A stretch of DNA of 64,000 nucleotides. It comes from Candidatus Heimdallarchaeota archaeon. Its GTDB lineage: Archaea; Asgardarchaeota; Heimdallarchaeia; Heimdallarchaeales; Heimdallarchaeaceae. Positions 9,071-24,543 of this stretch are shown here, piece by piece. Below the pieces are notes generated by a model. The model was not told where the DNA came from. It made no database searches and saw only the letters and a program-made list of their open reading frames with translations. The position numbers were made by a program, and so were the translations under genes. The stretch lies in assembly GCA_021399395.1 (NCBI GenBank), contig JAAFKJ010000047.1, forward strand, positions 8,447-72,446, in the 5' to 3' direction. Every line of letters begins with the position of its first letter. The first letter of the stretch is position 1.

Positions 9071-10225
9071 TCATTCATTTTTACGTGAAGCAAGATTGAA
9101 ATAAAGTTGCTCAATTTTATCAGTTATTTTTTCAAAGGAAAATTCAGAGCGTATTCTTGGTCTAGCATTTAGTGCTTTTTTGACAAGGCTTTCATAATCG
9201 TCTATCGATTTAAGTATCAATGTCTCAAGAGTTTTTTCATCACCTGCTTTGAATAACAAACCGCTTTTTCCATTTTCTAATAAACGTGGAATATCCCCTA
9301 TTTCTGCTCCAATAACTGGTATCCCCATAGCCATAGCTTCAATTATAGTAGTGGGGGAACCCTCCCAAAAACTAGGTTGTATTAGAATATTAGATTGAGC
9401 CAAAATTTCAGGAACTTGAGAGTGTTCAATAGCTCCAAAGATTTTTACTCTTTTCTCATTTTCAAATCTTGTTTTAAGAGAATCATAGAGAGAACCATAT
9501 CCTACAAACCAGAAGACTGCCTTGTTTGTACGTTTTAATACCCTTTGCACAACCCGAGCATAATATGGAATTCCTTTCCAAGGTTCTAAATCACCTACAA
9601 AAGTTATTATGCACTCCTTCGAATAAACAGGTTCAATTTCTGTAAATAGAAGAGGATCTATTGCATTATTAATTATAGTAATCCTTTCGGGATTTGAGTG
9701 AACAGTTTCCCTAAGTAAAGAAGCATCATAATCACTTACTGATGCTATTGAATCTGCCTGTGAGATTACAAATCGTCCAAGAGTATAATCAAAGAATAAT
9801 TTAGCAAACTCCTTCAAGAAGCCTGTTTTGTAAGGTGGTCTTCCAACTCCCCCATGAACATGCAGAAGCATTGGTATTCTTCTAATAAGTTTAGTTAAGG
9901 CAGCTTGAATTGTTGTAAAATAAATATAGGAATGTACATGAAAAACATCCACATCACCTAATTGAAGCATTTTATGCAGCATAAAACATGCAGGATTTAT
10001 CCCAAAAACGTTCCATGGGCTATAAAATCTATGGACTGTCATATTCTCATGGTATGTTTGGTAAGGGATTTTGGTACTTCGTTTGGTTGTAAATATATCT
10101 AGATGGTGTCCTCTTTTAACTAATTCTTCTGATAGATGACTAACATACCTCTCAGTTCCACCATAGCTTTTTGATCCAAAAAAAGGTGTAACTTGAACGA
10201 TATTTAGAGATTCCATTATATCCAC
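9071..10225 (-). CDS. Glycosyltransferase family 4
   Basis: GGTERYV N-terminal motif; PSFWEGSPTTIIEAMAMG (EX7E). Confidence 0.9.
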   Translation of the reverse strand: MDIMESLNIVQVTPFFGSKSYGGTERYVSHLSEELVKRGHHLDIFTTKRSTKIPYQTYHENMTVHRFYSPWNVFGINPACFMLHKMLQLGDVDVFHVHSYIYFTTIQAALTKLIRRIPMLLHVHGGVGRPPYKTGFLKEFAKLFFDYTLGRFVISQADSIASVSDYDASLLRETVHSNPERITIINNAIDPLLFTEIEPVYSKECIITFVGDLEPWKGIPYYARVVQRVLKRTNKAVFWFVGYGSLYDSLKTRFENEKRVKIFGAIEHSQVPEILAQSNILIQPSFWEGSPTTIIEAMAMGIPVIGAEIGDIPRLLENGKSGLLFKAGDEKTLETLILKSIDDYESLVKKALNARPRIRSEFSFEKITDKIEQLYFNLASRKNE

Positions 10226-11937
10226 CAGAAATTGTAAAGAAGAAAATTATTTCCATTATTTATCACAACATGATAAGATAGATCACCTACGTAATAGAAA
10301 TTTAATAGATACATCAGTTCATCTTGCGTTAGTTGATATGGTAATCCTAACCATTGATCCATAACTGTACCTATCACAAGGTAATCAAGTCCCGTATGTG
10401 TTAGATGATGGCCATTTTCAACCATTGTAAATCTTGAACTCAAAATAATGGGTAAAGTGTAGATATTAATTCCTTTGATAAATTTAGATATCGAAAAAGG
10501 TATACTTGCTCTAGAAGTATTGAAATCAATTAATGAATCCATTGTATTCGCTATGGTTAGGTTTTGATAGTTATTGGTTAGATTATAACTAGGCAGATAT
10601 TGTTGTCCAACATAAGCAATGCTTAGATATGAGTTGAAAACAAGTACGGTAAGGAAAATCATTTTCCAATTATTTTTTAATTTAGGTATCCAATCTGAAA
10701 TCGCTAGATAAGCCAAGAATGAAACAAAGATTATTGTGAAAACAAATGTTCTAGGTGCAACCCATGAGAGCTCTGGTTCAGATGAAAACAATAAGGAAAA
10801 TACAACAGTCATTCCATAGAAAAAGAAACCTAGTATAAATAATGATAATTTCAGGGTATTTCTAGAAATTAATGATATGCCACTTAGTACAAAAATAAGC
10901 ACTAATTCAGCTGAGATAAACCAGGAAGATAAGCTTGCAGAATATATGAAAAGACCAATCACTTCAACAATTATCAGAGCGGCTATTGTACCTAAATATG
11001 CAATTTTCTTTAAATTAACTCCTTTAGAAGCTTCATTGAGTTTTGTAATAATTTTTGTTTGTGTAATTTTATTTTTGAGTTTTCTAAATTGCGTTTTTAT
11101 GAACTCTTTTTGATAAGTTCTTAGATAATAACTAGTAAAAATGAGTATTATCCAGATTGAAAGAAATACAAATTTATTGCCAACAAAGACCTTGAATACA
11201 TTCTCATAAGCTGGATTCATGGATAGGAAATAATTCACCTTCTCAAACTCACTAGACCCTAAAATAGTGTTGATTATAATTACAGCTGGAATAGCATAAA
11301 TTAGAGAGATTACTGATTTTATGTCTTTAACTAGAAACAGACTTGCAAATATAATAACTGGAACTAGAAATAGAGCAGAAATATGATGGACTTGCACAGC
11401 GACAATTGCTAGAATACTCGCAATAATCTGAGCTCTGAAGCTTTTAGGCTTACACAGATAAAGATACAAACATAGACTGAACAAGCTAATTCCTAATGAA
11501 TTTGGTCTTCCCAAAAACATCTGAATGCCTATCATTGCAGGAAATAATAAGATAAGAGCAAGGTATTGAAACTTCAAGTTATGGGAAATATATCCGTTCT
11601 TTTTCTTCTCTGTATGACGTATAAAAGCTATAATAGTTAGATCAAAAATTAGAATTGGGATAACTATACTAATAAATTCATAAAGAATTTCTGAACTCAA
11701 TCCAGTCATTAAAGAAATGCCAGAAGCAAGTAAGTGAAAACCTACAAAGTCATAATATGATGGGGAAATTGAAAACTCAAATATGTGACGATTCTCAATT
11801 ATAGCATCAATATATTGCAAATGAATATATGAATCAAATCCAAACATTCCTAGATTAAAATACAGGATAAGGAAAATTAGAAGAATTTTCCCGAAAATCA
11901 AGGTAGGAACAAATAAGGATTTTTTAGCCACAATCAC
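10216..11937 (-). CDS. Polytopic membrane protein, GT-C-like
   Basis: About 13 hydrophobic segments; first external loop GFDSYIHL (DxxxH) then YY.F.GFH.L, plus a HH motif, a layout typical of GT-C-fold proteins; overlaps the GT4 start. Confidence 0.55.
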   Translation of the reverse strand: MIVAKKSLFVPTLIFGKILLIFLILYFNLGMFGFDSYIHLQYIDAIIENRHIFEFSISPSYYDFVGFHLLASGISLMTGLSSEILYEFISIVIPILIFDLTIIAFIRHTEKKKNGYISHNLKFQYLALILLFPAMIGIQMFLGRPNSLGISLFSLCLYLYLCKPKSFRAQIIASILAIVAVQVHHISALFLVPVIIFASLFLVKDIKSVISLIYAIPAVIIINTILGSSEFEKVNYFLSMNPAYENVFKVFVGNKFVFLSIWIILIFTSYYLRTYQKEFIKTQFRKLKNKITQTKIITKLNEASKGVNLKKIAYLGTIAALIIVEVIGLFIYSASLSSWFISAELVLIFVLSGISLISRNTLKLSLFILGFFFYGMTVVFSLLFSSEPELSWVAPRTFVFTIIFVSFLAYLAISDWIPKLKNNWKMIFLTVLVFNSYLSIAYVGQQYLPSYNLTNNYQNLTIANTMDSLIDFNTSRASIPFSISKFIKGINIYTLPIILSSRFTMVENGHHLTHTGLDYLVIGTVMDQWLGLPYQLTQDELMYLLNFYYVGDLSYHVVINNGNNFLLYNFWWI

Positions 11938-12019
11938 ACCTAACTGTATTCTTCTAAATAAACTTTTATTGCATTTTCAGGTTCAATTATACTGTATATT
12001 CTCTATTAGAGTTTTAAAG

Positions 12020-13180
12020 TCATTCCATCTTATTCTCTTGTTTCTTTAAAAACTTAAAATTACTACACTGAGTACAGCCTTGATTTTTCAACTGTTCAAT
12101 AGTCACAAATTCTTTATTCTTACCAACAATATACTCGGTCTTACAATTTTTACATAAATAGGTACGAAGAATGGGATTTACATCACCAGTGTACAGCGGT
12201 CCTTCAAAATTATCTTGAATTAAAGGAGTCGCTGAAGCACCCACAGACAATCTGTACAAGTTAGAAATCCCACCTAACTTCTGTGCGCCTATATATTCGT
12301 TAAAACCATGTAAAATGTTAGTTAACAAGCCGCCCATATCAGTTAAATCCTTTTGAATGGCTAACATTTGTTCTGGGGGTTTACTACCAAAAGAAAGATA
12401 GAAAATGCCATTTGTCTTTTTCTTGAGTAATTGAATACCACGAGAAACAAACAGCTGCACTCCAGTCTGAGTATATGGTGGATCTGTAATAAAACAATCA
12501 AATAGACTGGAATACTCTTCAGGAAGAGTTTTCCTAAGGTCAAGTTCTATGAACTCGATACTAAGATCTAATTCACTGTTTGCCAAATCAATAATCTCTT
12601 TTAATTTTGGATCAATATCAAAAACAACGATTCTTGACGAAGAAGGAAGGAACAGAGCCAATGCAATACTGGTTAAATCACTGTCTCCTACAAGTGCATA
12701 AGTGCTATAAAATAAATCATAGTTATGACTCATTGTAAGAACTCGGAGAAGGCTAGTTTGAGGTGTCGCAAACGATTGATCAATAACTGTATTTGGTTGT
12801 CCTCTTAGATCCGAATACTTTTTGATTATGTCTAATTGTGTTGAGTATCCATCCAGAGGAAAGTGCAAACCAGATTTTGTACAATTTTTACAAGAGAAGT
12901 CTACATTTGTCTTGCTTATCGAAGAAATTATTTCCTGCCCTTGAGATGTTAACACAGTTCCTTTGTTCGTTCTTTTGCACCAACCTAGTTTCTCAAATTC
13001 ATTTCTTATGGCAACACATAAAGGAATAGGAAAACTAGCTTTTTGTGATAACTTCTGCATGGGAGAATCAGGAAATCTATCAAGTACTGCGAAGAATTTT
13101 ACTATTCCATTGATACCTTCTTTCAATTTGACCTTATTTTGGACAGCAGAGAATGAATCAAAAATAGTGTCTCTATCCAT
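12020..13180 (-). CDS. BpsA-like (branched-chain polyamine synthase / DUF43) SAM-dependent transferase with extra C-terminal zinc finger
   Basis: N-terminal wHTH-like region PIPLCVA...LT..G, CxxC, DQSFATP.T...R, VGDSDLTSIALA, DIDPKL, DLRK.LP, FDCFITDPPYT, FNEY; C-terminal CKNC...CTQC. Confidence 0.85.
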   Translation of the reverse strand: MDRDTIFDSFSAVQNKVKLKEGINGIVKFFAVLDRFPDSPMQKLSQKASFPIPLCVAIRNEFEKLGWCKRTNKGTVLTSQGQEIISSISKTNVDFSCKNCTKSGLHFPLDGYSTQLDIIKKYSDLRGQPNTVIDQSFATPQTSLLRVLTMSHNYDLFYSTYALVGDSDLTSIALALFLPSSSRIVVFDIDPKLKEIIDLANSELDLSIEFIELDLRKTLPEEYSSLFDCFITDPPYTQTGVQLFVSRGIQLLKKKTNGIFYLSFGSKPPEQMLAIQKDLTDMGGLLTNILHGFNEYIGAQKLGGISNLYRLSVGASATPLIQDNFEGPLYTGDVNPILRTYLCKNCKTEYIVGKNKEFVTIEQLKNQGCTQCSNFKFLKKQENKME

Positions 13181-13298
13181 AAATTAAGTTATATAATATA
13201 TTCAAAAATCTGATGGATATAGACAAAAACATGCCATTAATGTGATATTGAGCGATAATATTTTTTAAAGAAGAAAATATTGTACGAACAAGAGCGTT

Positions 13299-14561
13299 AT
13301 GTTTGATACTATAGAAAACTACCCCTATCTTGAATATAAGAACAAAGAACTTCATTTAAATGGAAAAACAATTGATTCCGTTCTTTCAAAAAAAGAAACT
13401 CCAATTTTCATATTTTTAGAAGAAAGATTTCTGAATAATGCTACTGAATTAGAACAGAATCTCAAAAAGTCCATTCCAAATTTGTTTATATCCTATGCAA
13501 TTAAAGCAAATTACCTAGGTAGAATTTTACATAGTGCTAAGAAAATTGGTTTGGGGATTGAAGTCATGTCACTTTTTGAGCTAAAATTGGCACGCGAAGC
13601 TAAAATCCCAAACAAAGATATCATCTTTAATGGACCCGCTAAAACAACAGAAGAGCTGGAATATGCACTTGGTGAGGGAATCGAGAACATAAATGTCGAT
13701 TCTATGAATGAACTGATTCTTATTGAAAAACTAGCTAAGAAAAGAAATATGGTCCAACCCATCACTGTACGTATTCATCCGAAGCTAGATGAAAAAACAG
13801 AAAGGAAGATGTTAATCAAGAAAAACAGCAAACTTGGAATAGATTACTCAAGAGGAGTAAAGTTATTTGAGTTCGCAAAGAAGAGTGAAAATCTAAATCC
13901 AGTAGGAGTTCATACTCATATTGGGACAAACCTAACTTCTCACAATTTCTACGAAGAGTTATTAGAGTTCATGAATAAATATATTAGTGATCTCGAAAAG
14001 AAGCATGGTATTTCAATTGAGAACATAAATCTAGGAGGAGGTTTAGCTAGTAAATCCACATTAGACAAGAGTGGATTTCAGATAGCAAAATTAGGCGAAC
14101 AAATTTCTTCACATATATCTAACATTGAAGATAAAACGATCATCTTTGAACCTGGAAGATACTTAATAGAAGATAGTTTCGTTGCTATCACTAAAGTCCT
14201 TAGAACAAAGAAATCTTGGGGAAGGAAATGGGCTTTCACCGATATAGGAGCTAATTCATTAATCCCTATGAGATATACTCATTACAAAGTTATTCCTCAG
14301 AATTTCAAAGGAAAAGGTCAATATACAAATATCGGAGGCCCTTTGTGTTTACCCGTAGATGTATTGACTGATGAATCTGTAGACTTTGAAATAGAGGAAG
14401 AGGATCTTTTAATGGTTTTAAACTGTGGAGCCTATACTATTTCAATGAGTGAACAATTCGGATATCCAAGGCCTGCGGTTTATGCTTTGAATCAAGAGAA
14501 AGAGTTGGAATTAATCAAACCAGCTGATGACATAGATAAAATGGTAAGAGAATCTTTTTAG
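13299..14561 (+). CDS. Fold-type III PLP-dependent decarboxylase (LysA/ODC superfamily, MccE/BtrK-like)
   Basis: YAIKANY (PLP Lys), IIFNGPAK, HTHIGT, NLGGG, EPGRY, GPLCLPVD, GAY..SM. Confidence 0.9.
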   Translation: MFDTIENYPYLEYKNKELHLNGKTIDSVLSKKETPIFIFLEERFLNNATELEQNLKKSIPNLFISYAIKANYLGRILHSAKKIGLGIEVMSLFELKLAREAKIPNKDIIFNGPAKTTEELEYALGEGIENINVDSMNELILIEKLAKKRNMVQPITVRIHPKLDEKTERKMLIKKNSKLGIDYSRGVKLFEFAKKSENLNPVGVHTHIGTNLTSHNFYEELLEFMNKYISDLEKKHGISIENINLGGGLASKSTLDKSGFQIAKLGEQISSHISNIEDKTIIFEPGRYLIEDSFVAITKVLRTKKSWGRKWAFTDIGANSLIPMRYTHYKVIPQNFKGKGQYTNIGGPLCLPVDVLTDESVDFEIEEEDLLMVLNCGAYTISMSEQFGYPRPAVYALNQEKELELIKPADDIDKMVRESF

Positions 14562-14569
14562 GGGAAAAC

Positions 14570-15097
14570 ATGAAGAAGCCTTCTGATAGTCTAGAAATTT
14601 GTTCGAAACATTGCGGGAGTAAATGTTGTAGAAGCACACCTCCAGCATTAACCAAAGAGGATATTGACAGAATAGAAGAAAAAACTAACATTGAGAATTG
14701 GTACACTACAATTGAGTTTAATCAAAAAACTGCAAATGTTGTTGCCAAAAAAAATGATACAGATGATTGTTTTTTTCTATCAGATAATGGGTTGTGTGGT
14801 GTTTACGATTACAGACCACTAGATTGCAAGTTATTTCCTTTATTTGTACAAATCAAAAAACAAGGTGAGAAAGAGTATAATGTTAGATGGTTGGTTTGGT
14901 ACTGTCCTTTAACCGAGAATAAAGGGATAGAGGTTCTGAAAGTAGAATCAGAGAAACTTTTGATATCAATTTTATCGGAAAATCCAGATCAAATATTTGA
15001 TTATCAAGAAGCAATGTATACTTCAAGAGGTTACAAAAAGAAACACTTCTTTAAGGAAGAATGTTTAAAGATACAAAAGAGTGATTCAGAATCATGA
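14570..15097 (+). CDS. YkgJ/UPF0153 (FliB-like) cysteine-cluster protein
   Basis: CxxxCxxxCC plus CFFL....LC.VY..RPLDC..FP pattern. Confidence 0.85.
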   Translation: MKKPSDSLEICSKHCGSKCCRSTPPALTKEDIDRIEEKTNIENWYTTIEFNQKTANVVAKKNDTDDCFFLSDNGLCGVYDYRPLDCKLFPLFVQIKKQGEKEYNVRWLVWYCPLTENKGIEVLKVESEKLLISILSENPDQIFDYQEAMYTSRGYKKKHFFKEECLKIQKSDSES

Positions 15098-16083
15098 CCA
15101 CAATCTCCCTTATAATTCCAACTTACAATAATGCCTCCACTTTGAGAGCTTGTTTAGATTCTGTAAAAAAACAAACACTAACTCCAACAGAAATAATCAT
15201 CGCTGATGGTCATTCAAGTGATGACACTGTCAATATTGCAAAGGAATTTGGCTGTAAAATAGTATACGAAGAAGGGGGAACAAGAGCTGCTGCATGTAAT
15301 GTAGCGCTTGAAAAAGCCGAAGGAGAATTGATAGCTTTTACAGATTCTGATGTAATTGCTAAAGAAGATTGGCTGGAAAAACTTGTATCTACTCTAGACA
15401 CAATAGAATACGAAAATGTTGTTTGCATAACAGGACCAAATATTGAATATCCTAATGAGAGTTTGTTCGGAAAAGCTGTCACTGCGATTTACAATACCTT
15501 TCTAGGAGGAGGCTGGTCAGAGCAAGCTAGAAGCATATTTAACAAAGAGGGTAGATTTGTTGAAAGTGCTGCGGGGTGTAATGTACTATATAGAAGAGAA
15601 GCATTGAATGAAGTTCTTCCATTTGATGAAGATTTATTAACTGCGGAAGATACTGACATCAATTTCAAACTTCTGAAAAGAGGGTTCAAACTTTACTTTA
15701 CCCCAGAAGCAATTGTTTATCATCAACGTCCTCAAAATCACAAATCATTCCGTTCTAAGTCAAAGAAATATGCAATAGGAAAAATTCAGTTTTTCAAAGA
15801 GCATAAAACAGGTCTTGAGCTATGGCATTTATTACCATCTTTCTATTTTATAACTGGAATCTTTCTAATTTTTGGTTTGTTTGCTAGCCTTTGGATCTGG
15901 ATTGGTATTGTAGCATATTTTGGTTTTTATCTTTTAGTAATAATATTAGCTTCTTTGATTCAAGCTATAAAGTTCAGACAGTGGAAGTTTATCTTCTTAT
16001 TACCTATCATGTTCATTGAAGGTCATATATCATGGAGTATTGGAATACTGAAAGAAATTTTCCTTCCAATGAAAAGAGAGTGA
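15094..16083 (+). CDS. Glycosyltransferase family 2 with C-terminal membrane helices
   Basis: SLIIPTYN, DGHSSDDT, FTDSD (DXD), AEDTD; three C-terminal hydrophobic segments. Confidence 0.9.
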   Translation: MTTISLIIPTYNNASTLRACLDSVKKQTLTPTEIIIADGHSSDDTVNIAKEFGCKIVYEEGGTRAAACNVALEKAEGELIAFTDSDVIAKEDWLEKLVSTLDTIEYENVVCITGPNIEYPNESLFGKAVTAIYNTFLGGGWSEQARSIFNKEGRFVESAAGCNVLYRREALNEVLPFDEDLLTAEDTDINFKLLKRGFKLYFTPEAIVYHQRPQNHKSFRSKSKKYAIGKIQFFKEHKTGLELWHLLPSFYFITGIFLIFGLFASLWIWIGIVAYFGFYLLVIILASLIQAIKFRQWKFIFLLPIMFIEGHISWSIGILKEIFLPMKRE

Positions 16084-16088: not shown

Positions 16089-17306
16089 ATGTCCTTAAAC
16101 ATAGCAATGATTTTCGAATTAGGTCCTCACGATGATGGCTTAATCGGAGGTGGTGTAGAACTTCATGCGTTAAACCTTTCAAAGGCACTTGTTAAAAGAG
16201 GACATAAAGTGACATATATCACAGGTTCCATACCCAATAATGAGAATAAAACAAATATTGAAGGGGTGGAGATTAAAAGAGTTGATCTTTTATCTATTAT
16301 AAAACGAGGTTATAACGCTCAAGAATTAAAATTTTCTCGGCAATTCTTTTTCTTGTTGAAAAACACATTACCAATATTGAGAAGAGAGATAGATAGTAAA
16401 GCGTATGATCTCTTTCATGGTCATGTTTATTCTTCAGGTTTAGTAGCGACGGCTTTAGGAAAGAGAAATCAAAAGATAATTATCAACACAATGCATGGAT
16501 CCTACTATAAATATTGGAGTCAGTTGGTAAAGAATCGAATCAAGGCTGGATTCTATAGAGGAATGGAAAGAAAACTAGCTCCATATTTAGCAAAAAAGGC
16601 TCATTGTCAGATTCATACAGATTATGATTATGCTCAGATAGTTAAAAACTGGTGTAAAGAAGAAACAAAAACTAAAATCCATACGGTGTTAAATGGAGTT
16701 GATATAGAAAAGTTTCATCCCGAAATATCTCCTGAAACTAGTATTATAGAAGAGGATGGACCAATCATTATGACTACCAGAAGATTAGTAGTGAAGAATG
16801 GTGTGATTCACTTAGTTAGAGGTTTTGAAAAAATCTTAAAGAAACACTCATCGGCAAAACTACTGATTGTAGGTGATGGTCCAGAAAGGTCCCCCATTGA
16901 GAGAGAAATAAAACAAAGAGAATTATCTAGTAGTGTTAAATTAACAGGGATGGTCCCCAATGACAAAATACCTTCATATTTGGCCCTAGCTGATGTAGTT
17001 GTTGTGCCAAGCATAGTTGAAGCATCTAGCATAAGTGTACTTGAAGCGATGGCAATGAGAAAGGCGATAGTAGCTTCAGACATTCCAGGTATTAGGGAAA
17101 TAACAAACCAAGGAAAAAATTGTGTGTTAGTCCCGCCTAAAGACCCCAAAGCTTTAGCAGATGGTGTGATAAAACTATTGGATTCAAAAGAACGTGCAAT
17201 TAAATTAGCAAAATTAGCTTATGATAATGCAGTTAAAGACTTCAGTTGGGAGAAAAAAGCACAAGAAATAGAAGCCCTCTATTTGAGAGAGCTTGATAGG
17301 AGTTGA
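16089..17306 (+). CDS. Glycosyltransferase family 4
   Basis: GGGVE, NGVD, KNG, PSIVEASSISVLEAMA. Confidence 0.9.
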   Translation: MSLNIAMIFELGPHDDGLIGGGVELHALNLSKALVKRGHKVTYITGSIPNNENKTNIEGVEIKRVDLLSIIKRGYNAQELKFSRQFFFLLKNTLPILRREIDSKAYDLFHGHVYSSGLVATALGKRNQKIIINTMHGSYYKYWSQLVKNRIKAGFYRGMERKLAPYLAKKAHCQIHTDYDYAQIVKNWCKEETKTKIHTVLNGVDIEKFHPEISPETSIIEEDGPIIMTTRRLVVKNGVIHLVRGFEKILKKHSSAKLLIVGDGPERSPIEREIKQRELSSSVKLTGMVPNDKIPSYLALADVVVVPSIVEASSISVLEAMAMRKAIVASDIPGIREITNQGKNCVLVPPKDPKALADGVIKLLDSKERAIKLAKLAYDNAVKDFSWEKKAQEIEALYLRELDRS

Positions 17307-18198
17307 CTTGGAAATGGAGACGAGTTTTTGTTTTAGAGTAGATATAGACACTTGGGAAGGATTACATAAAGGAATTCCGGAATGCTTGAGACTCTCTAAG
17401 GAAAATTCATTTCCGTTTACATATTATTTGAGTTTAGGAAAATATGCAACGGGTAGGAATCTCTTTCGAATTATAAAGAAGAATGAGCCCATTAGAAGAA
17501 ATATTCCAATATGGAAAAGAAATCATTGGAAAGATCTATTCCGTGGCATTTTACTTCCACCTAAAAAAATAGGAAGTAATACAATAAAGATACTTCAAGA
17601 ATATCAGGCAAATGAACATACTGAGTTTCATTCTCATGGGTATAATCATGTGCATTGGGCAAATTCATTTGATCATTTCAGTGAAAATGAAACTTCTAAT
17701 TATCTTGATTTGATGAAAACAGAATATACTAAGATTTTTGGAAAAGAACCTCAAGCTAATGCTGCACCCAATTTCAAAGTAAACCCTTTCTACTTGGCAA
17801 TATTATCATCAAAGCAATTCAAATTCGCTTCAGATTTTGTTTATCATTCACCCTTTTTACTTTCTTCCAGTGATAAGAGTAAAAAAACAGAAGAATCTAT
17901 AGTACAGTTACCTGTTACTGAGGAAACAATTGAAAGTTTAGTGATGCAAGGTAAAAATAAAAGTGAAATTATTGAGTACTACAAACAAAGGTTTCAGAAA
18001 CAAATTGATAATGGTATTTCTTATGTGTGTTTGTATATTCATGCAATATATGAACCATTAAAGCTATATTCTATTATTGAGGACATAATCAAATTAACTG
18101 AACAATATGACATGAAACCTCTAACACACTTAGAATATTATAATCAAAGAAAACAATATCCAACAATCAAAATCAAGAACATCTTACCGGAGATATAA
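17293..18198 (+). CDS. ArnD-like CE4 deformylase/deacetylase
   Basis: RVDIDT.EG...GIP, S.G...TGRNLFRI, G.LLP...IG, HSHGYNH..W and a late YIHA, matching the ArnD pattern (RIDVDT...GVP...HAWDH). Confidence 0.8.
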   Translation: MIGVDLEMETSFCFRVDIDTWEGLHKGIPECLRLSKENSFPFTYYLSLGKYATGRNLFRIIKKNEPIRRNIPIWKRNHWKDLFRGILLPPKKIGSNTIKILQEYQANEHTEFHSHGYNHVHWANSFDHFSENETSNYLDLMKTEYTKIFGKEPQANAAPNFKVNPFYLAILSSKQFKFASDFVYHSPFLLSSSDKSKKTEESIVQLPVTEETIESLVMQGKNKSEIIEYYKQRFQKQIDNGISYVCLYIHAIYEPLKLYSIIEDIIKLTEQYDMKPLTHLEYYNQRKQYPTIKIKNILPEI

Positions 18199-18201: not shown

Positions 18202-19350
18202 ATGAATAAAAACACATCGTGCATACTCACTCAAGAATATAAAAGAGGAGCTACATGGATTTACAGTGAAGAGTTAGCTAAAGCAATTAAGAGACAAAGT
18301 GACTGGAATCCTGTTTTAGTTACAGCATTAAGGGATGAAAAACTTACCCCTAAACCTGAAAAATCAGAGATTGAAATTGAATTTATAAATACAATTTCGT
18401 CAAGATTTTTCTATTCTAATAGTTATTGGAGAGGAACTGGTTCTGTTGTTGAAGCAATAAAACCGTCAATTATACACGGTAATCTCCCTATGCTATCCAC
18501 TCGAAAAATAAAAACAAACAAACCCATAGTTGAAACAGTTCATACAACATTTTATGGAGAACAAAAATCTATTATCCAAGAACCATCAGTTACATTGAAC
18601 TGGGTCGAAAGAAGATTGTTATTGGCTTTTCCCTTTTTGCAAAGAATTGAAACTAAGCTTATGAAACAAGCTGATCATCTTATTGCCGTTAGCGAACCTA
18701 TTAAACAGGAAATAATGGAAAACTATCCAATTGAAGATTCTAAGATTTCTGTTATACCAAATGGGGTGGATATAACAAAATATACTAAAGATGAGAACAA
18801 AATTTACGAGAAAAATGATGATGAGTTTGTTTTAGGATTTCTGGGAAGGATGATGATTAGAAAAGGTTCTGAATTACTTGCTCCATTATTAAAGAGAGTA
18901 AAGGATGTGAATCCAAATGTCAAATTACTGTTCGCTGGAGATGATCTGAAACAGAAAAAGAATTTTGCTAGAACATTGAAGAATTATGATCTTACAGAGT
19001 CAGTTGTAGATTTAGGTTATATTGATGACAATATGAAAAATAGTTTCTTCAGCTCTGTCGATTTGTTCTTACTTCCTTCAAACTATGAAGGCATGAACCT
19101 AACTTTGCTTGAAGCGTTATCATGTCAAACACCTATTCTAGCTGCACCTGAAGCAGTTACATTTGAACATGATGATACAATTTTCACAGCACAGCGAAAC
19201 GTTAAATCTTTTGCAGATAAGATAGTTGAGTTAATGGAAAATAAACAATTACTATCCTCAATAGCAAAGAAATCTAGAGGGATAGCTGAAAAATACACTT
19301 GGGATAACACTGCTGAACAAACCCTTGAAGTCTATGAAAAACTCTTATGA
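18202..19350 (+). CDS. Glycosyltransferase family 4
   Basis: IAVS, IPNGVD, GR...RKG, PSNYEGMNLTLLEALSC. Confidence 0.9.
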   Translation: MNKNTSCILTQEYKRGATWIYSEELAKAIKRQSDWNPVLVTALRDEKLTPKPEKSEIEIEFINTISSRFFYSNSYWRGTGSVVEAIKPSIIHGNLPMLSTRKIKTNKPIVETVHTTFYGEQKSIIQEPSVTLNWVERRLLLAFPFLQRIETKLMKQADHLIAVSEPIKQEIMENYPIEDSKISVIPNGVDITKYTKDENKIYEKNDDEFVLGFLGRMMIRKGSELLAPLLKRVKDVNPNVKLLFAGDDLKQKKNFARTLKNYDLTESVVDLGYIDDNMKNSFFSSVDLFLLPSNYEGMNLTLLEALSCQTPILAAPEAVTFEHDDTIFTAQRNVKSFADKIVELMENKQLLSSIAKKSRGIAEKYTWDNTAEQTLEVYEKLL

Positions 19351-20433
19351 TTCATCTATATTTTGACTAGATTTCTTCTTTTTCCTTTCTTCTTTCTTTG
19401 CTATCTTTCTTTGTTTTCTTTCTTGTTTTACTTCTTTTGTTTCAGCAAGAGGGAGAATATACATCCAGAAAATAGGAAGCCAAATAATTAAAATTACATA
19501 CCCTAGGTAATTGTGTACTGGTCCAGCAATTGAGCCACCTTGATAGTAATATAATGAGATGATAATCATAATTCTAATCAGATTCATGATATAAGTTCCA
19601 ATAATACCAAGCAGAGTTACTAAAATTGTTTTATAATTCCATTGAAGTCGCTTACGTGCTTCAAAAAGCATAAGAAGGAATACAGCTGCAAAAACAGTTA
19701 GAGAATGTATACCACTACAAGCAGCATCAACATAGAGAGAACCTTGCCCACTGGGGGCATTGGAAAAAATAATTCTAATCATCCATTTTGTGTCAATTAG
19801 GTTGCGTAGTTCAAACGGTGAGCTAAGGAAAAATGTAGTTCGATTTACTCCCGCTAATTGTGTATATGTATAGAAGGGTACCCAACTAACATCCAGTAAA
19901 TTCACTCCAAAAGCCATAACAATTGAAGAAGTAATGACACCAGTTGACCTTGTTAACCATTTTGCTAGGGTTGTACTAAACAATAGTTCAGAAATATCAG
20001 TAAATATGAAAATGTAGAAAATAGTAGTTAACACTACAACATATATTCCTGGAGAGCGATACTTCTTGAAAAATGGATCATCCCAAGTTATATAGAAGAC
20101 CAGAATTGTAGCGAGTACCAAACCTATTGGAACAAGAGTAGCCCGTAATGCTTTATTTTCTGCTTCAGGATATGTTTCATACAGAACATAAAGTGTAACA
20201 ACTAAACCAAAAAGGATTGCAGAAAGAGTATATCTTACATATTTATTTTTAAGAGGAAGAATAATTGGTTCAAGTTTCGAATAAGTTTTAGACGAGAAAG
20301 TAGAGAGATCCTCTTTTGATTTAGAAACGAATCTAGATAGTTTTGTTTGAGGTTTATCATCAGATGATTCCTCAGTTGAAGTTTTCACTTCTTTACTATC
20401 TTTAGAATCAACCTCATCTGCCATTTGAATCAA
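19345..20433 (-). CDS. Exosortase/archaeosortase family transpeptidase
   Basis: Multi-TM protein with catalytic triad V.AACSGIHS (Cys), NLIRI (Arg), VHNYLG (His). Confidence 0.88.
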   Translation of the reverse strand: MIQMADEVDSKDSKEVKTSTEESSDDKPQTKLSRFVSKSKEDLSTFSSKTYSKLEPIILPLKNKYVRYTLSAILFGLVVTLYVLYETYPEAENKALRATLVPIGLVLATILVFYITWDDPFFKKYRSPGIYVVVLTTIFYIFIFTDISELLFSTTLAKWLTRSTGVITSSIVMAFGVNLLDVSWVPFYTYTQLAGVNRTTFFLSSPFELRNLIDTKWMIRIIFSNAPSGQGSLYVDAACSGIHSLTVFAAVFLLMLFEARKRLQWNYKTILVTLLGIIGTYIMNLIRIMIIISLYYYQGGSIAGPVHNYLGYVILIIWLPIFWMYILPLAETKEVKQERKQRKIAKKEERKKKKSSQNIDES

Positions 20434-20518
20434 CTATTTATTACTAAAAATTAAAGTTCCCCATTTGTTAAACCTAACGTTTCTTCAAATGGAAATTAAG
20501 CATTGAAATGAGATGAAC

Positions 20519-20728
20519 TCATTCGTCTTCATAGATAATGTTGTTAAAGGCATTATCAACATTTGGAAAACGAAAGTCTGTTGATTGCTTTGAAGCATAA
20601 TGTTCTCTGTAAAAATCTCTTAATGCCAATCTTATTGCCTCTGATCTCGATGCATATCGCCCTTGAAGAACCATTTCATCTAAAATTTCTACAAATTGAC
20701 TAGGAAGTCTTATTGAAATCAAGTTCAT
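20519..20728 (-). CDS. Ribbon-helix-helix (CopG/NikR-type) regulator
   Basis: ISIRLP...LDEMV..GRYASRSEAIRLALRD. Confidence 0.85.
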   Translation of the reverse strand: MNLISIRLPSQFVEILDEMVLQGRYASRSEAIRLALRDFYREHYASKQSTDFRFPNVDNAFNNIIYEDE

Positions 20729-20934: not shown

Positions 20935-21519
20935 TTAGATTGAAACCAACTTCTTGCACTTTTCACATTCCAAAATCGTACTGTCAGGTAAAGGATCCTT
21001 TGTCTTCTTTAGAACATTACCGCAATAGCAAACGTATCCTTGCAATCGAGCAGGATTTCCATACACCAATTCATGGTGTTGAACATCTTTTGAGACCAAA
21101 CTTCCTGCACCAATCATTGCATACTCTCCAATTGTAATTCCACAAACAATTGTTGCGTTTGCTCCTATTGAAACGCCCTTCATAACTTGTGTTTTTACCA
21201 ACTCCCAATCAGGATTTGCTGCTCTTGGTAGAAAATCATTTGTAAAACATACATGTGGTCCAACAAAAACATCATCGCCTATTGTTACACCATGATACAC
21301 AGACACAAAATTTTGTATCTTAACATTGTTACCTATGGGAACTTTAGTATCAACAAAGACAGATTTTCCAAATATGCAGTTTTTACCTATTCTTGCTCCT
21401 TTTCTTATCTGAACCAGATGCCATATCTTAGAACCTTCACCAATAAATACGTCGTCTTCAATAAAAGCAGAAGGATGAACATAGTAGTCTTTATCCGCAT
21501 TCATAATTCTATAATTCAT
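20935..21519 (-). CDS. Hexapeptide-repeat sugar N-acetyltransferase (WbpD/WlbB-like) with C-terminal zinc ribbon
   Basis: IG.GSKIWH, IGNNVKIQNFVSVY.GV, FTND..PR, GNPAR..GYVC.CG. Confidence 0.85.
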   Translation of the reverse strand: MNYRIMNADKDYYVHPSAFIEDDVFIGEGSKIWHLVQIRKGARIGKNCIFGKSVFVDTKVPIGNNVKIQNFVSVYHGVTIGDDVFVGPHVCFTNDFLPRAANPDWELVKTQVMKGVSIGANATIVCGITIGEYAMIGAGSLVSKDVQHHELVYGNPARLQGYVCYCGNVLKKTKDPLPDSTILECEKCKKLVSI

Positions 21520-21555
21520 TTAAAATAATAAAAAAGTTTACTACAGATGGTAGTT

Positions 21556-22323
21556 TTACAATTGCGAACAGCTTTTACAGTTATTGTCTTGTTCAATTTG
21601 AAATGTTTCATACGAATTATATTGTAAATCTACATACATAATCTTGTTTACCAGTAGTTTTTGATTATCTCTAAATACAAGGTATTTGATAGCTTCATTT
21701 GCTTCAATTATTCCAAAAAAACCAGCAATAGTACCAATAACACCATCTTCACTTGTTGTAGGATATGAACCAGGGGTCGGTATTTCTTTAAACATACATC
21801 TATAGCAAGCTGTTTTGCCAGGAATCACGGTCATCATCTGACCCTCAAATTGATAAACACCACCAATAACAAAAGGAATCCCAAGTTTACAGCACATATC
21901 GTTTACGAGGAATTTAGTTTCGAAGTTATCACTGGCTTCAACAACAAAGTCATAACCCGCTAATAATTCTTCAATATTTGAAGAATTCAGAGTTACAGAA
22001 TGTTCTACAATCTTTACATCAGGATTAAGTTTAGTAATCTTCTCAAAAGCTGACAAAGTTTTAGCTTTACCTTTATCTTCTTCATAATGTAAAATTTGCC
22101 TGTTCAAATTGGATAATTCTATCTGATCTTGGTCAACAAGTCCAAGAGAACCTACACCAGCTGTAGCCAAATAATAAACAATACTTGAACCCAGACCCCC
22201 TAAACCAATAACGCACACTTTACTTGATTTTAGTTTTTCTTGTCCCTGTATTCCGAAATTCGATATTATTATTTGACGATTATACTTCTCAAGTTCTCTC
22301 TCATCTAACATTTTACCTATCAA
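21556..22323 (-). CDS. ThiF/MoeB/UbaA-family E1-like adenylyltransferase
   Basis: Y.RQI, GLGGLGS, D..ELSNLNRQ, CYRC and C-terminal CxxC. Confidence 0.9.
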   Translation of the reverse strand: MIGKMLDERELEKYNRQIIISNFGIQGQEKLKSSKVCVIGLGGLGSSIVYYLATAGVGSLGLVDQDQIELSNLNRQILHYEEDKGKAKTLSAFEKITKLNPDVKIVEHSVTLNSSNIEELLAGYDFVVEASDNFETKFLVNDMCCKLGIPFVIGGVYQFEGQMMTVIPGKTACYRCMFKEIPTPGSYPTTSEDGVIGTIAGFFGIIEANEAIKYLVFRDNQKLLVNKIMYVDLQYNSYETFQIEQDNNCKSCSQL

Positions 22324-22449
22324 AATACAGTTAAAAATGAAAGTAAAATAATCTTTCTAATAGTAAATCATAAAATGTATAAGATGCCAAAATATTTAAA
22401 ATCGTTTCATCTCATTGGCACAACGACTAGAAACACCGAGGTTTCAACA

Positions 22450-24543
22450 ATGAAAAAGATAAGAAGTACAATTGTTACTTTGGCTGTGCTATTTACAATA
22501 TCCATGTTATTTTCAGTAATGTATGGAATAGTACAAGCTAACCAATCAGCAGATTTACCTATAATCCAACCAGAAAGAATAAACACATCAATTCCTTCAA
22601 CAGAAGAATTGTCCCTAACAGATGATATTGTGTTCGAATATAACTATGGAATAAATGTCACTGCTATAGCTAATAGATCTATAGAAATTCAAACATTCGG
22701 TGTATTATCACTGGTTGACTCAATAAAACTTGAAATTGTTGGAAATGTGAATTTAACATATTTCAATTATACTTTACCAAATATTCACACTAGTAATATT
22801 ACATTTGCAAGTTTCCGTGTTTCAAATGATTCTTATGAGGCAGTAGGCAACTCATCAGCTATGCGTTCTTACACTTATCAGAAGAAGATAAATTATACAA
22901 CCTTTATAATACCTTTACATGTCAATAGAACAAGTTTTGGGCAAGGTCAAGTAATTTACATCAGTACTTATCTAGAATTTTCTTCCCCCTATTTGTTTTG
23001 GTTAGAAGGAGGAGAGCAAGTAATTCATTATGAAGAGTTAATTTATCCTTTAATCAATAACATCCCAATAGTAAATGGTTCAACGTGGGTACAGAAACAG
23101 GGTGGTGATGTTTTCTTATTGGATAGACTTACCCCAACTAATGGTACTAATGGAATTTTCAATTCAGTTGATACAAATCAAGGAGTAATAAAATGGACAA
23201 ATATTACAAGACAGCCATTTAATTACTCACAATCATACGATGAAGACATATACATGCATGTCTATCTAACAGCAGTTTCAGTAGGTGGAGAAGTAGAAAA
23301 TCCAGCTAATACTATGCTGTTCAAATCTACAGAGATAAATCGTAGAATTGAAATAGATCCTTATGGATTAATTAAAATTACCGAGCAACAAACACTTCAC
23401 TACTTTGGACCTGAGAGACCAGAAGGTAATTTGTATGAACTTAAATTATGGGCATTGAACTCTTTTCCAGTTATCTTACCAATAAATGCTACAGTTCTTG
23501 AGCTCTATGATGAAATAGGTGGATTGAATCAGCAATACCAAATAAGTGACGACCTATTTTTTGAGCCAGGAGCATATAATCAACGTCCTAGTGTATTTCT
23601 TGGTCATGATGCATTAGTCATTTTTCCACGAGCACCTTTATTCAATGGAGATGAATTTACTTTTACAATGATTTACACAGTACCTATGGAAGTATATATT
23701 GAGAAAGAACAAGGAAGCATCAATTATAGGATGAAATTTGAGCCTTGTTCAATTATTAATTGGACAGTAGAACAACTGAATGTGGATTTAGTTCTTCCCA
23801 AAGGAGCTGTATATCATACAATTAGATACAATAATCCTGATCCTTACCAAGATATGATACTCAACTATAATAAAAAATTCGATTTTGTTTCTCTAGGATT
23901 CAGGAGAATTCTCAGTTTCTCATTTACTACTTTCACAGGGAATGATAATGCTCCACTAGTGGTTGAATTTAGTTATTCAAGGTTAAATGTTCTCATCACT
24001 TACTTCTTCCAAGTACTTACAGTTGGTATCGTATTTGCTATATATCTTGGAATTAGATGGTCAACAAAGAAAACTAAAGATCTAGTGGTGAGTGAATCTG
24101 AGAAAGAATTTATTCCAATCGAAGAAATTGAGGAATTTGTTAAACAGTACGAAGAAGTTCTATCTATAAAAGAAAGGCTCAGAGAAACTAGAAGTAAAGT
24201 CGCAGCAAAGAAAATGAAAGCTAAAGAAGGAAAAGACGTGATTGCTAAATTAGAGACACGTATGAGATCTGAAGAAATCAATCTCAAACAAACTAAGGAA
24301 ACTCTAGTTAAACATGGTGGAAGATATAAGCAATCCGTTCAAAAAATTGAAATTGCTGAAAGAAAACTCTATGAAGAAAGAAGAAATCTACGTGTTCTTC
24401 AACAAGAATATAGAGTAAAGAAGACTATTATGACTAGAGAGTCTTACGTAAAGATGTTCCAAGACAGACAGCAAACCATTGAAAAACTCAGAAATGACAT
24501 CGATGGTGAGTTACTATACCTTAGAATGTTATTGGAACCTTAA
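22450..24543 (+). CDS. Ribophorin I (OST1/RPN1)-like oligosaccharyltransferase accessory subunit
   Basis: Signal peptide from ATG 22450 (GAGGT SD); RRIEIDPYG.I.ITE, DEIGGL, PRAPLFNG..F.F...Y..P and V.LVLPKGA motifs; one TM; coiled-coil C-terminus; many NxS/T sequons. Confidence 0.75.
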   Translation: MKKIRSTIVTLAVLFTISMLFSVMYGIVQANQSADLPIIQPERINTSIPSTEELSLTDDIVFEYNYGINVTAIANRSIEIQTFGVLSLVDSIKLEIVGNVNLTYFNYTLPNIHTSNITFASFRVSNDSYEAVGNSSAMRSYTYQKKINYTTFIIPLHVNRTSFGQGQVIYISTYLEFSSPYLFWLEGGEQVIHYEELIYPLINNIPIVNGSTWVQKQGGDVFLLDRLTPTNGTNGIFNSVDTNQGVIKWTNITRQPFNYSQSYDEDIYMHVYLTAVSVGGEVENPANTMLFKSTEINRRIEIDPYGLIKITEQQTLHYFGPERPEGNLYELKLWALNSFPVILPINATVLELYDEIGGLNQQYQISDDLFFEPGAYNQRPSVFLGHDALVIFPRAPLFNGDEFTFTMIYTVPMEVYIEKEQGSINYRMKFEPCSIINWTVEQLNVDLVLPKGAVYHTIRYNNPDPYQDMILNYNKKFDFVSLGFRRILSFSFTTFTGNDNAPLVVEFSYSRLNVLITYFFQVLTVGIVFAIYLGIRWSTKKTKDLVVSESEKEFIPIEEIEEFVKQYEEVLSIKERLRETRSKVAAKKMKAKEGKDVIAKLETRMRSEEINLKQTKETLVKHGGRYKQSVQKIEIAERKLYEERRNLRVLQQEYRVKKTIMTRESYVKMFQDRQQTIEKLRNDIDGELLYLRMLLEP

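Follow-up and report, generated by a model that had tools for sequence, protein, structure and literature searches.

Here we address whether a gene cluster of Candidatus Heimdallarchaeota archaeon, in which a transferase and a decarboxylase lie among glycosyltransferase (GT) genes, forms one system that places an aminopropyl arm on a cell-surface amino sugar, as a preliminary description proposed, or consists of parts that can be separated. The window, i.e. the whole stretch of DNA that was analysed, comprises 64,000 nucleotides, and its source genome (G000) is 81.8% complete. We favor, as moderately likely, a composite locus, in which a housekeeping trio predicted to transfer the 3-amino-3-carboxypropyl (acp) group of SAM, with later decarboxylation, stands beside an accessory surface-glycan island. 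The observed basis of this explanation is the gene content, the separability of the two parts, the covariation of a transferase motif with its decarboxylase partner, and the unsuccessful searches for a SAM decarboxylase and for the DAP pathway.

Gene content and separability of the locus

All 11 gene calls of the preliminary description are present at the coordinates given there, and Pfam and NCBIfam scans recovered the reported family signal for 10 of them. The features of the locus are as follows.

9071..10225, minus strand: GT4 glycosyltransferase a (PF00534 2e-27; GT4 set PF00534/PF13439); accessory block, by synteny
10216..11937, minus strand: orphan polytopic membrane protein, 573 aa; accessory block
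12020..13180, minus strand: BpsA-family transferase, 386 aa (PF01861 1e-42); core trio
13299..14561, plus strand: LysA-like fold-III PLP decarboxylase, 420 aa (PF02784 and PF00278); core trio
14570..15097, plus strand: YkgJ-family Cys-cluster protein, 175 aa (PF03692 2e-10); core trio
15094..16083, plus strand: membrane GT2 with a GT-A domain and two C-terminal hydrophobic segments (PF00535 9e-30); accessory block
16089..17306, plus strand: GT4 glycosyltransferase b (PF00534 4e-37); accessory block, by synteny
17293..18198, plus strand: ArnD-like (CE4-type) deacylase (NF011923 75.8 bits, equivalog cut-off 382; PDB 8t0j E 1.2e-9); accessory block
18202..19350, plus strand: GT4 glycosyltransferase c (PF00534 2e-23); accessory block, by synteny
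19345..20433, minus strand: unclassified archaeosortase-family paralogue, 362 aa (TIGR04178 50.3 bits, cut-off 23); accessory block
20935..21519, minus strand: hexapeptide-repeat acetyltransferase (PF00132); backbone neighbor, outside the variable block
21556..22323: ThiF; retained where the GT block is missing (L028), absent from the preliminary description
22375..24543, plus strand: ribophorin I-like protein (PF04597 54.7 bits, cut-off 25); backbone neighbor

The tight packing of the six genes from the decarboxylase to GT4c agrees with the measured gaps, which are +8 bp (decarboxylase/YkgJ), -4 bp (YkgJ/GT2), +5 bp (GT2/GT4b), -14 bp (GT4b/ArnD-like), and +3 bp (ArnD-like/GT4c). The transferase and decarboxylase genes are divergent and 118 bp apart, and the GT4a and membrane protein genes overlap by 10 bp.

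The locus was compared among 31 genomes of the window's family, Heimdallarchaeaceae (f1), and in other families (f2-f6); g1-g3 denote the three f1 genera with the glycan block, and g4 and g5 f1 genera without it. The core trio (12020-15097) of BpsA-family transferase, LysA-like PLP decarboxylase, and YkgJ protein is kept in every f1 genus sampled, even where the sugar genes are absent from the genome. No GT genes accompany it at the locus in the single-contig Heimdallarchaeum genomes G027 and G030 or in G028; it stands alone at loci L026, L027, and L028, and in g4 its neighbors are the CysRS, TrmI, and gyrase genes. Genome searches of G027, G030, and G028 found neither the ArnD-like protein (0/3) nor the membrane protein (0/3), and of the archaeosortases only a short heimdallarchaeosortase-type gene, not the long one. 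The ArnD-like protein was also not found in G054 or G059, and in g4 and g5 no GT2 is present where the trio is encoded. Around the trio, the GT genes of either flank are gained and lost together with the genes for the ArnD-like protein, the membrane protein, and the long sortase.

The hexapeptide acetyltransferase (adjoining YkgJ), ThiF, and ribophorin I genes remain at L028, where the GT block is missing, so that the locus does not behave as the one contiguous system originally described; the acetyltransferase and ribophorin I are part of a conserved backbone outside the variable block. Of the genes whose co-occurrence and synteny were proposed for testing, the transferase-decarboxylase pair is conserved in the family, and the ArnD-like and long sortase genes are missing in g4 and g5. 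Of the WbpD-like N-acetyltransferase, the hexapeptide acetyltransferase assignment holds in generic form only, at 101.6 bits against a NeuD/PglB/VioB cut-off of 160.8.

In g1-g3 the trio shares its operons with GT genes, with overlaps of 4-14 bp, and the two modules may therefore be linked. The trio heads both GT operons at 8/8 g1-g3 loci uncut by a contig end, as well as at L143 and L148; in these three genera the glycan island is attached to each of the two trio operons at its 3' end.

The glycan block and its relation to the trio

The GT2, the three GT4s, the ArnD-like enzyme, the orphan membrane protein, and the extra archaeosortase are, judged by family assignment and synteny, an accessory surface-glycan island, which, in the style of bacterial exosortase/EPS loci, would plausibly make a lipid-linked glycan containing an amino sugar that has been deacylated. 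Bacterial exosortase (PEP-CTERM/EpsH) polysaccharide loci likewise hold a sortase-family membrane protease amid GT2 and GT4 genes, and NCBIfam includes an exosortase-A-associated LysA-like decarboxylase, TIGR03099. Unlike these loci, the window is archaeal, its decarboxylase scores 155 bits against the TIGR03099 membership cut-off of 478, its sortase subtype is unclassified, and no cognate sorting signal was identified among the G000 ORFs. ArnC/ArnD/ArnT-type amino-sugar addition is a lipid A modification, and the block resembles that system in that its membrane GT2 is accompanied by a deacylase of ArnD-like type and by a polytopic membrane protein of large size; it differs in that the GT2 has no specific ArnC match and the deacylase, which is ArnD-like at the family level as described earlier, stays below the ArnD equivalog cut-off.

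The Cys-Arg-His exosortase-family assignment was confirmed by the TIGR04178 score and by the triad Cys240, Arg289, and His307, retained in 11/11 aligned orthologs. The paralogue falls into no named subtype among ArtA-H and heimdallarchaeosortase (best ArtC, 41 bits against 100), and a separate heimdallarchaeosortase is encoded elsewhere in G000, on contig C52 (252.9 bits, cut-off 130). In this genome 110 ORFs show loose (V/I)P(E/F/Y) motifs at an end made up of a hydrophobic stretch and a basic tail, none of these ORFs being assignable to the paralogue.

The membrane protein has about 11-13 hydrophobic segments and a C-terminal soluble part, with an invariant Asp35 after TM1, and is possibly GT-C-like. 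It matches no Pfam family, and its AlphaFold model has a mean pLDDT of 48.9. Its 39 homologs all share at least 50% identity, the named sources all being of the Heimdall or Asgard group, and a profile search gave seven matches in 1.84 billion representatives, with no outside relatives. DUF6541 is detected in 4/26 family members (best E 2.3e-5), the window protein not among them, and among its Atlas neighbors, which serve as leads only, PMT_2 occurs in 12% of members and DUF6541 in 13%.

The trio might add an aminopropyl arm to the amine freed by the ArnD-like enzyme on a lipid-linked amino sugar, yielding a cationic modification or a sortase acceptor analogous to GPI. The overlapping operons headed by the trio in g1-g3, and the joint coming and going of the flanking GT, ArnD-like, and long sortase genes around it, speak for such a role. 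However, the orthologous trio is kept in g4 and g5, where none of these genes accompanies it, and another acceptor is therefore needed there; transferase relatives with a GDDD motif that are paired with a SAM decarboxylase (AdoMetDC) have no GT neighbors; and a general heimdallarchaeosortase is available elsewhere in the genome. We consider this explanation unlikely, and the lipid-linked amino sugar lacks support as the acceptor because the trio persists without GT, ArnD-like, and membrane protein genes in G027, G030, and G028. The suggested GPI-like anchoring role fares no better: Pfam and NCBIfam scans revealed no PIG-L/LmbE-type deacetylase and no C13-type (GPI8) transamidase among the locus proteins, and in contrast to the GPI pathway (PIG-A, PIG-L, GT-C mannosyltransferases, and GPI8) the window has a CE4/ArnD-like deacylase and a sortase-family protease. 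It is quite improbable that both hold together, i.e. that a transfer-first route replaced the SAM decarboxylase in Heimdallarchaeaceae and that three genera recruited it by operon fusion to aminopropylate the deacylated hexosamine of a lipid-linked glycan, as a cationic glycan or an anchor acceptor for the extra archaeosortase.

Covariation of the transferase motif and the decarboxylase partner

The transferase consists of an N-domain, a Rossmann domain in which the motifs GDSD and DPPY lie, and a C-terminal CxxC...CxxC ribbon. It carries the BpsA domain PF01861 (146.6 bits, cut-off 27), and residues 47-298 match the N4-bis(aminopropyl)spermidine synthase of Thermococcus kodakarensis, Tk-BpsA (PDB 5xnc/6j26; E 1.5e-36 to 5xnc), the alignment covering N-domain and Rossmann domain alike, with Asp160 and the DPP and FNEY motifs retained. 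The Tk-BpsA stretch 'VLGDDDLT' is aligned to 'LVGDSDLT', so that the second Asp of the GDDD motif of dcSAM-dependent BpsA is lost; GDSD is found in the window protein and in 14/14 family orthologs, as against GDDD in 7/7 f5/f6 relatives. [quoted passage not shown] The window protein further differs in having DPPY for DPPE; the alignment stops at residue 298, and at the C-terminus the Zn-ribbon-like CxxC...CxxC appears to replace the acidic aminopropyl-carrier cluster of BpsA. The window genome yielded no SAM decarboxylase, and its lineage, unlike Thermococcus, was sampled from mesophile-type MAGs.

The motif was then related to gene neighborhood (within 2.5 kb) in 92 distinct homologs from 100 loci (L021-L120), with AdoMet_dc detected by a purpose-built HMM. 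The GD(S/G)D homologs adjoin a PLP decarboxylase in 20/20 cases, YkgJ in 19/20, and AdoMet_dc in 0/20; among the 72 GDDD/GEDD homologs, an AdoMet_dc homolog is nearby or fused in 48 and missing in 24, and neither the PLP enzyme (0/72) nor YkgJ (0/72) was detected. The switch from GDDD to GD(S/G)D thus partitions perfectly with the decarboxylase partner, and all 22 GD(S/G)D loci counted keep the AR-fold PLP decarboxylase beside the transferase. The AdoMetDC equivalog TIGR03330 (cut-off 75.65) recognizes the f6 neighbor at 116 bits and the f5 fusion at 90.3 bits, the latter transferase-AdoMet_dc fusion being confirmed by Pfam. In a more distant Heimdall lineage (L127), a GDGD transferase lies 3.5 kb from a 43%-identical decarboxylase, with no YkgJ nearby and no PF02675 found in the genome. 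In a quick tree, all GD(S/G)D proteins group in a single clade (SH-aLRT 97), and the covariation therefore represents one evolutionary event rather than many independent ones.

The SAM decarboxylase family PF02675 was found in 0/31 f1 genomes, two single-contig genomes among them, and in 7/7 f5 and 6/7 f6 genomes, in a search whose controls were positive in 7/14; PF01536 was found in 0/61 genomes, its control being likewise silent. The PLP decarboxylase was found in 30/31 f1 genomes, and its matches elsewhere do not exceed 28% identity. Families f2-f4 mostly have neither route, so that the absence of AdoMetDC alone does not demand a replacement, and some PF02675 homologs are reported to be arginine or ornithine decarboxylases (PMC10407285).

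The decarboxylase scores 253.6 bits against the LysA equivalog TIGR01048, below its cut-off of 297.9, with another family-level match to DokD (152.8 bits). The 'CES' of DAPDC reads 'CLP', a change of the Glu after the catalytic Cys to Leu that is invariant within the family, and the specificity-helix Arg (Arg343 of MjDAPDC) aligns to a gap; this Arg and the acidic residue after the catalytic Cys are described as binding the distal end of DAP (PMC7857480). It is the sole PF02784 gene of G000, G001, and G025; DAP epimerase (PF01678) was found in 0/5 genomes and DHDPS (PF00701) in 0/3 of g1/g2, with weak matches in g4. Plain LysA, named beforehand among the outcomes that would count against the proposed surface system, was rejected on the score, the altered DAP-binding residues, and the DAP-pathway genes that were not found.

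The LysA-like enzyme might alternatively be a new PLP-dependent SAM decarboxylase that substitutes for the pyruvoyl enzyme, with the BpsA-like protein remaining a dcSAM aminopropyltransferase. To our knowledge, no such PLP enzyme has been described. That the two decarboxylases replace each other beside the same partner gene, and that the DAP-binding residues are remodelled, would fit this explanation; the loss of the Asp that binds the dcSAM amine, exactly and only in the PLP-paired proteins, would be left unexplained, and we regard it as improbable.

Proposed chemistry and its acceptor

For the composite locus that we favor, we infer the donor, the order of steps, and the acceptor, as well as all that concerns the glycan. 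The trio probably aminopropylates directly from SAM, with the carboxyl removed later: the GDSD transferase, a proposed SAM:amine 3-amino-3-carboxypropyl transferase, would bind SAM itself and move the acp group to an amine with release of MTA, and the PLP enzyme, a proposed decarboxylase of the acp adduct, would then remove its carboxyl. Decarboxylation after acp transfer would give a net aminopropylation without a SAM decarboxylase. The MccD/MccE-like chemistry suggested in the preliminary description is thus supported by comparative evidence, namely the motif/partner split, the 0/31 count for AdoMet_dc, and a decarboxylase other than LysA.

By analogy, the MccD/MccE pair of microcin C in Escherichia coli, encoded by adjacent genes as here, would share acp transfer from SAM followed by AR-fold PLP decarboxylation to aminopropyl; MccE is described as an AR-fold decarboxylase that acts on acp-modified microcin C (PMC7857480). 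In the window, the transferase belongs to the BpsA family PF01861; the decarboxylase is LysA-like and free-standing, whereas the PLP domain of MccE is N-terminal; and YkgJ is added, in the primary metabolism of an archaeal family rather than a peptide-nucleotide antibiotic. In the carboxyaminopropylagmatine (CAPA) and carboxyspermidine pathways (CAPADH or CASDH with a fold-III decarboxylase), a fold-III PLP enzyme is reported to decarboxylate a carboxylated aminopropyl intermediate to the polyamine (PMC10599626). A carboxylated intermediate and fold-III decarboxylation are proposed here as well, with SAM alkyl transfer in place of a dehydrogenase acting on aspartate semialdehyde, and with a decarboxylase that is LysA-like rather than NspC-like (44 bits against 409).

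As a guess, the acceptor is agmatine, putrescine, or a longer polyamine, and the product would be the spermidine-type donor needed by the genome's deoxyhypusine synthase (DHS), which is present in 5/5 genomes. The best SpeE match was 36.5 bits, and no nspC was found at cut-off; a saccharopine-dehydrogenase-family gene, in 27/31 f1 genomes, scores 33 bits against the carboxynorspermidine synthase cut-off of 800. The acidic residues with which ODC, ADC, and CASDC hold a cationic tail are missing from the decarboxylase pocket, which has an invariant Arg325-Tyr326 and is therefore a poor fit to a simple polyamine adduct.

SAM binders typically have Gly or Ser in motif I, and the window DPPY resembles (D/N)PP(Y/F), a motif found in amino-methyltransferases. 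The GD(S/G)D protein could accordingly be an N-methyltransferase that binds SAM and methylates the amine made by the decarboxylase, in line with a faint METTL5 match (E 0.33) and with a Ser or Gly at the switched position, which suits a methyltransferase equally. However, DPPY occurs in all 100 BpsA-like ORFs of L021-L120, including GDDD proteins, many of them beside AdoMetDC homologs, and so is not peculiar to the switched proteins; moreover, DHS would have no source of aminopropyl groups in this lineage. We hold methylation to be very unlikely.

It is equally doubtful, to the point of being very improbable, that the decarboxylase acts on ornithine, lysine, arginine, or DAP and supplies a diamine for ordinary polyamines, with the donor made elsewhere and the glycan genes unrelated. 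The family-level matches to DokD and LysA agree with such a role, as does the report that genes for polyamine decarboxylases and transferases commonly occur together in operons (PMC8503589). Against it, the enzyme has no acidic residue after the catalytic Cys and no Asp on the specificity helix, agmatine is already provided by PvlArgDC (g1/g2) or an approximately 596-aa PF02784 protein (g4), and the searches for DAP epimerase and, by PF02675 and PF01536, for a donor-making enzyme were negative within the scope given above.

The YkgJ protein, with eight Cys residues invariant across 10 orthologs, has no place in the proposed chemistry; its gene follows the motif of the transferase, lying within 2.5 kb of nearly all GD(S/G)D homologs.

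Gene content and separability of the locus

In the window, G000:C136:8447-72446 of a Heimdall-group archaeon, the ORF listing, together with Pfam and NCBIfam scans, gave the following genes.

Genes of the locus (window positions, strand, product)
9071-10225, minus, GT4 protein (GT4a)
10216-11937, minus, 573-aa membrane protein, no family
12020-13180, minus, BpsA_C protein (transferase)
13299-14561, plus, fold-III PLP decarboxylase
14570-15097, plus, YkgJ Cys-cluster protein
15094-16083, plus, GT2 protein
16089-17306, plus, GT4 protein (GT4b)
17293-18198, plus, ArnD-like protein
18202-19350, plus, GT4 protein (GT4c)
19345-20433, minus, archaeosortase-family protein (362 aa)
20935-21519, minus, hexapeptide acetyltransferase
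21556-22323, minus, ThiF/UbaA-like protein
22375-24543, plus, ribophorin I

The intergenic spacings from GT4a through the sortase gene are -10, 82, 118 (divergent), 8, -4, 5, -14, 3 and -6 bp. Spaced in this way, the transferase, decarboxylase and YkgJ genes (the trio) head two tightly packed operons. The interval between the sortase and acetyltransferase genes holds a 69-aa ORF (20519-20728, minus strand) that resembles, by eye, a ribbon-helix-helix regulator.

Of the 30 further genomes in the family Heimdallarchaeaceae, 29 carry a full-length orthologue of the BpsA-like transferase (47-74% identity); the best match in the thirtieth, G020, is weak (E 1.8e-31). We compared 20 kb around the BpsA-like gene in 20 genomes, with the window proteins placed by tblastn. 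The whole arrangement is intact in eight loci of genera g1 and g2 that are uncut by contig ends, it is present as far as the contig end in two further loci (L022, and L032 of genus g3), and loci L143 and L148 likewise carry it whole. Only the transferase and the decarboxylase-YkgJ pair are kept in the single-contig Heimdallarchaeum genomes G027 and G030 (genus g4) and in G028 (genus g5). The G028 trio sits in the same backbone as in the window, with MetRS on one side and the acetyltransferase, ThiF and ribophorin I genes on the other; its g4 neighbours are CysRS, TrmI, enoyl-CoA hydratase, amino-acid kinase and gyrase genes. Searches of these three genomes returned no ArnD-like protein (0/3, a search without positive control) and no 573-aa membrane protein (0/3, with G001 as positive control), and each genome has one sortase-family gene, of ~240-247 aa, without a second.

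On this comparison, one accessory block is inherited together, made up of the GT2 and GT4 genes, the genes for the ArnD-like enzyme and the membrane protein, and that for the 362-aa sortase; the trio is independent of this block, and the acetyltransferase and ribophorin I are backbone neighbours. The preliminary description was largely right about the genes, which the scans bear out, and the transferase-decarboxylase linkage is kept; the unity that it saw in a single locus splits among relatives, the ArnD-like enzyme and the long sortase being separable from the trio. Its suggestion of a GPI-like anchor is unsupported, given that the trio persists without the glycan genes. The operon fusion with the trio makes its aminopropylated glycan conceivable as a secondary use in g1-g3, though to us an improbable one.

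In other genera the next gene after the BpsA-like one has a metallo-beta-lactamase fold (L025:10649-11326, L028:10667-11335); it is absent from the window, where the transferase and membrane protein genes lie 82 bp apart. The gyrase A gene of G027 (L026:15783-19592) contains an intein bearing a LAGLIDADG homing-endonuclease domain. For YkgJ no PDB relative was found, the literature found mentions the protein only incidentally, by titles and abstracts, and the tblastn-mapped orthologue stretch in G001 (L021:7473-7997) has one in-frame stop.

Transferase motif and SAM decarboxylase partner

The window transferase aligns with both domains of T. kodakarensis BpsA (E 1.5e-36), and at the GDDD motif of that enzyme the window protein has GDSD. 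According to the review PMC12979288, Asp159 and Asp160 of BpsA are essential and salt-bridge the aminopropyl amine of decarboxylated SAM (dcSAM). GDSD is found in all 14 family orthologues examined, as against GDDD in all seven class-level relatives (families f5 and f6). A Pfam search for SAM decarboxylase (AdoMet_dc, PF02675) matched none of the 31 family genomes; the same search was positive in 7/7 genomes of f5 and 6/7 of f6, where AdoMet_dc directly adjoins the BpsA-like gene or shares its ORF. The BpsA_C-AdoMet_dc fusion is borne out by Pfam, and neighbour and fused forms both pass the NCBIfam AdoMetDC equivalog. The eukaryote-type AdoMetDC (PF01536) matched 0 of 61 genomes in a search whose positive control was equally silent.

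A further 80 loci from species-representative genomes were recruited by BpsA-like alignment, bringing the total to 92 distinct homologues, and their neighbours were scored using, for AdoMet_dc, our own HMM built from four f6 ORFs. Among the GDDD/GEDD transferases (n=72), 48 have AdoMet_dc within 2.5 kb or fused and none has a PLP decarboxylase or YkgJ; among the GD(S/G)D transferases (n=20), AdoMet_dc is so placed in none, the PLP decarboxylase accompanies all 20 and YkgJ 19. A decarboxylase-alignment search added L127, a locus from a more distant Heimdall lineage with a decarboxylase 43% and a transferase 35% identical; the motif of this transferase is GDGD, 3.5 kb separate the two genes, AdoMet_dc was not found in the genome, and the ORFs near the two genes include no YkgJ. 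In a quick ML tree all 22 GD(S/G)D proteins fall into a single clade (SH-aLRT 97) that sits among GDDD proteins of archaea, namely Bathyarchaeota, Methanocaldococcus and Heimdall family f6; the motif switch therefore took place a single time.

As read from these comparisons, the Asp and AdoMetDC were lost and the PLP partner was gained together, as one switch. This clean evolutionary change supports the order of events proposed in the preliminary description, in which the transferase would transfer a 3-amino-3-carboxypropyl (acp) group and the PLP enzyme would then decarboxylate it. As a single-residue hypothesis, donor choice may depend on the replacement of Asp by Ser or Gly. The aminopropylated-polyamine routes in the accessible parts of the literature found draw on two sources only, dcSAM or aspartate semialdehyde, and no paper in the literature searched, whose coverage leaves out most subscription journals, describes direct acp transfer from SAM in polyamine synthesis. 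If true, transfer-first chemistry by BpsA-family enzymes would be a third logic in primary polyamine metabolism. It would also explain how this family of Heimdall archaea, which are closely related to the eukaryotic stem, can supply deoxyhypusine synthase (DHS) without AdoMetDC.

A shorter BpsA_C-like paralogue in the source genome (L126, G000:C55:1271-2134, minus strand, 287 aa) has GDMD for GDDD, EPPL for DPPY and a C-terminal CxxC ribbon; because of GDMD and EPPL we rejected it as a second catalytic transferase, and no NCBIfam family matched it. Thirty of the 31 family genomes have a listed match like this one, about 100-313 aa long and in some cases truncated at a contig end. One f5 fusion of BpsA_C and AdoMet_dc (L037:7624-9003 in G059, 459 aa) lies in a lipid-type context, beside UbiA prenyltransferase, inositol-1-phosphate synthase and CTP-transferase-family genes.

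Decarboxylase identity and candidate acceptor

Plain LysA is ruled out by the score, the missing DAP-pathway genes and the altered distal-group residues. Against the LysA model the decarboxylase scores 253.6 bits, below the cut-off of 297.9; DAP epimerase was found in 0/5 genomes and DHDPS in 0/3 genomes outside g4. In the alignment to M. jannaschii DAPDC, 'CES' after the catalytic Cys becomes 'CLP' and the specificity-helix Arg meets a one-residue gap; the acidic residue after the catalytic Cys and this Arg bind the amino and carboxyl groups at the distal end (PMC7857480, section 8). The source genome, G001 and G025 have no PF02784 gene besides the decarboxylase, which occurs once per genome in 30 of 31 members of the family, and homologues in other families are at most 28% identical. 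MccE, an alanine-racemase-fold enzyme, decarboxylates acp-modified microcin C (PMC7857480) and thereby offers a precedent for transfer first and decarboxylation after.

Our guess for the acceptor or product of the trio is a polyamine. It draws on DHS and arginase-family genes, both present in 5/5 genomes, on an agmatine source (PvlArgDC in g1/g2, a ~596-aa PF02784 protein in g4), and on the finding of no convincing SpeE, NspC or CASDH in the genomes searched. It is weakened by a decarboxylase pocket that has an invariant Arg325-Tyr326 and no counterpart of the Asp residues with which ODC, ADC and CASDC accommodate a cationic tail, and by families f2-f4, mostly without either route. PvlArgDC was not found in Heimdallarchaeum G027 and G030, the reverse of the g1/g2 pattern. 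These genomes carry long PF02784 decarboxylase genes (G027:C1:1149906-1153648, G030:C1:1263721-1264446; ~596-886 aa open frame), with two copies in G027.

A saccharopine-dehydrogenase-family gene, considered as CASDH of the aspartate-semialdehyde route, scores 33 bits against a carboxynorspermidine synthase cut-off of 800 and occurs in 56/61 genomes irrespective of the trio, and was therefore rejected as CASDH; in the source genome it adjoins a 442-aa ORF (G000:C131:9193-10521, minus strand) that looks, by eye, like a TnpB/IS200-605-type transposon protein. The PF01564 matches, to proteins of ~280 aa, are weak and do not exceed 36.5 bits; we read them as generic methyltransferases and rejected them as spermidine synthase. 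No polyamine context was found in the arginase-family gene neighbourhoods.

Proteins of the accessory block

The ArnD-like protein matches ArnD 8t0j (E 1.2e-9) but is not an equivalog, and the GT2 match is generic only. The membrane protein is, by homology search, an orphan: its 39 homologues are all at least 50% identical, with every given source name Heimdall- or Asgard-group, and its profile drew only seven matches from 1.84 billion representatives, six from its own family and the seventh a 671-aa protein (E 4e-4) without a Pfam family. The AlphaFold2 model from a 26-row alignment is poor, with pLDDT 48.9 and pTM 0.34; Atlas neighbours, DUF6541 in 4 of 26 family members and an invariant Asp35 are only leads toward a GT-C-like protein.

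The 362-aa sortase keeps Cys, Arg and His and fits no named subtype. A second sortase of the source genome (L122, G000:C52:1589-2323, minus strand) matches NCBIfam heimdallarchaeosortase NF045528 (252.9 bits, cut-off 130) and is of the same ~240-247-aa type as the sole sortase of G027, G030 and G028. We read the accessory block, by analogy, as a possible archaeal counterpart of exosortase/EPS loci; this glycan island, which has an archaeosortase paralogue to itself, is a separate lead on the cell surface of Asgard archaea, and a more ordinary one. Genome-wide, the source genome has 110 ORFs ending in a hydrophobic stretch and a KRKR-type tail, often preceded by loose (V/I)P(E/F/Y) motifs and by linkers rich in Thr and Pro.
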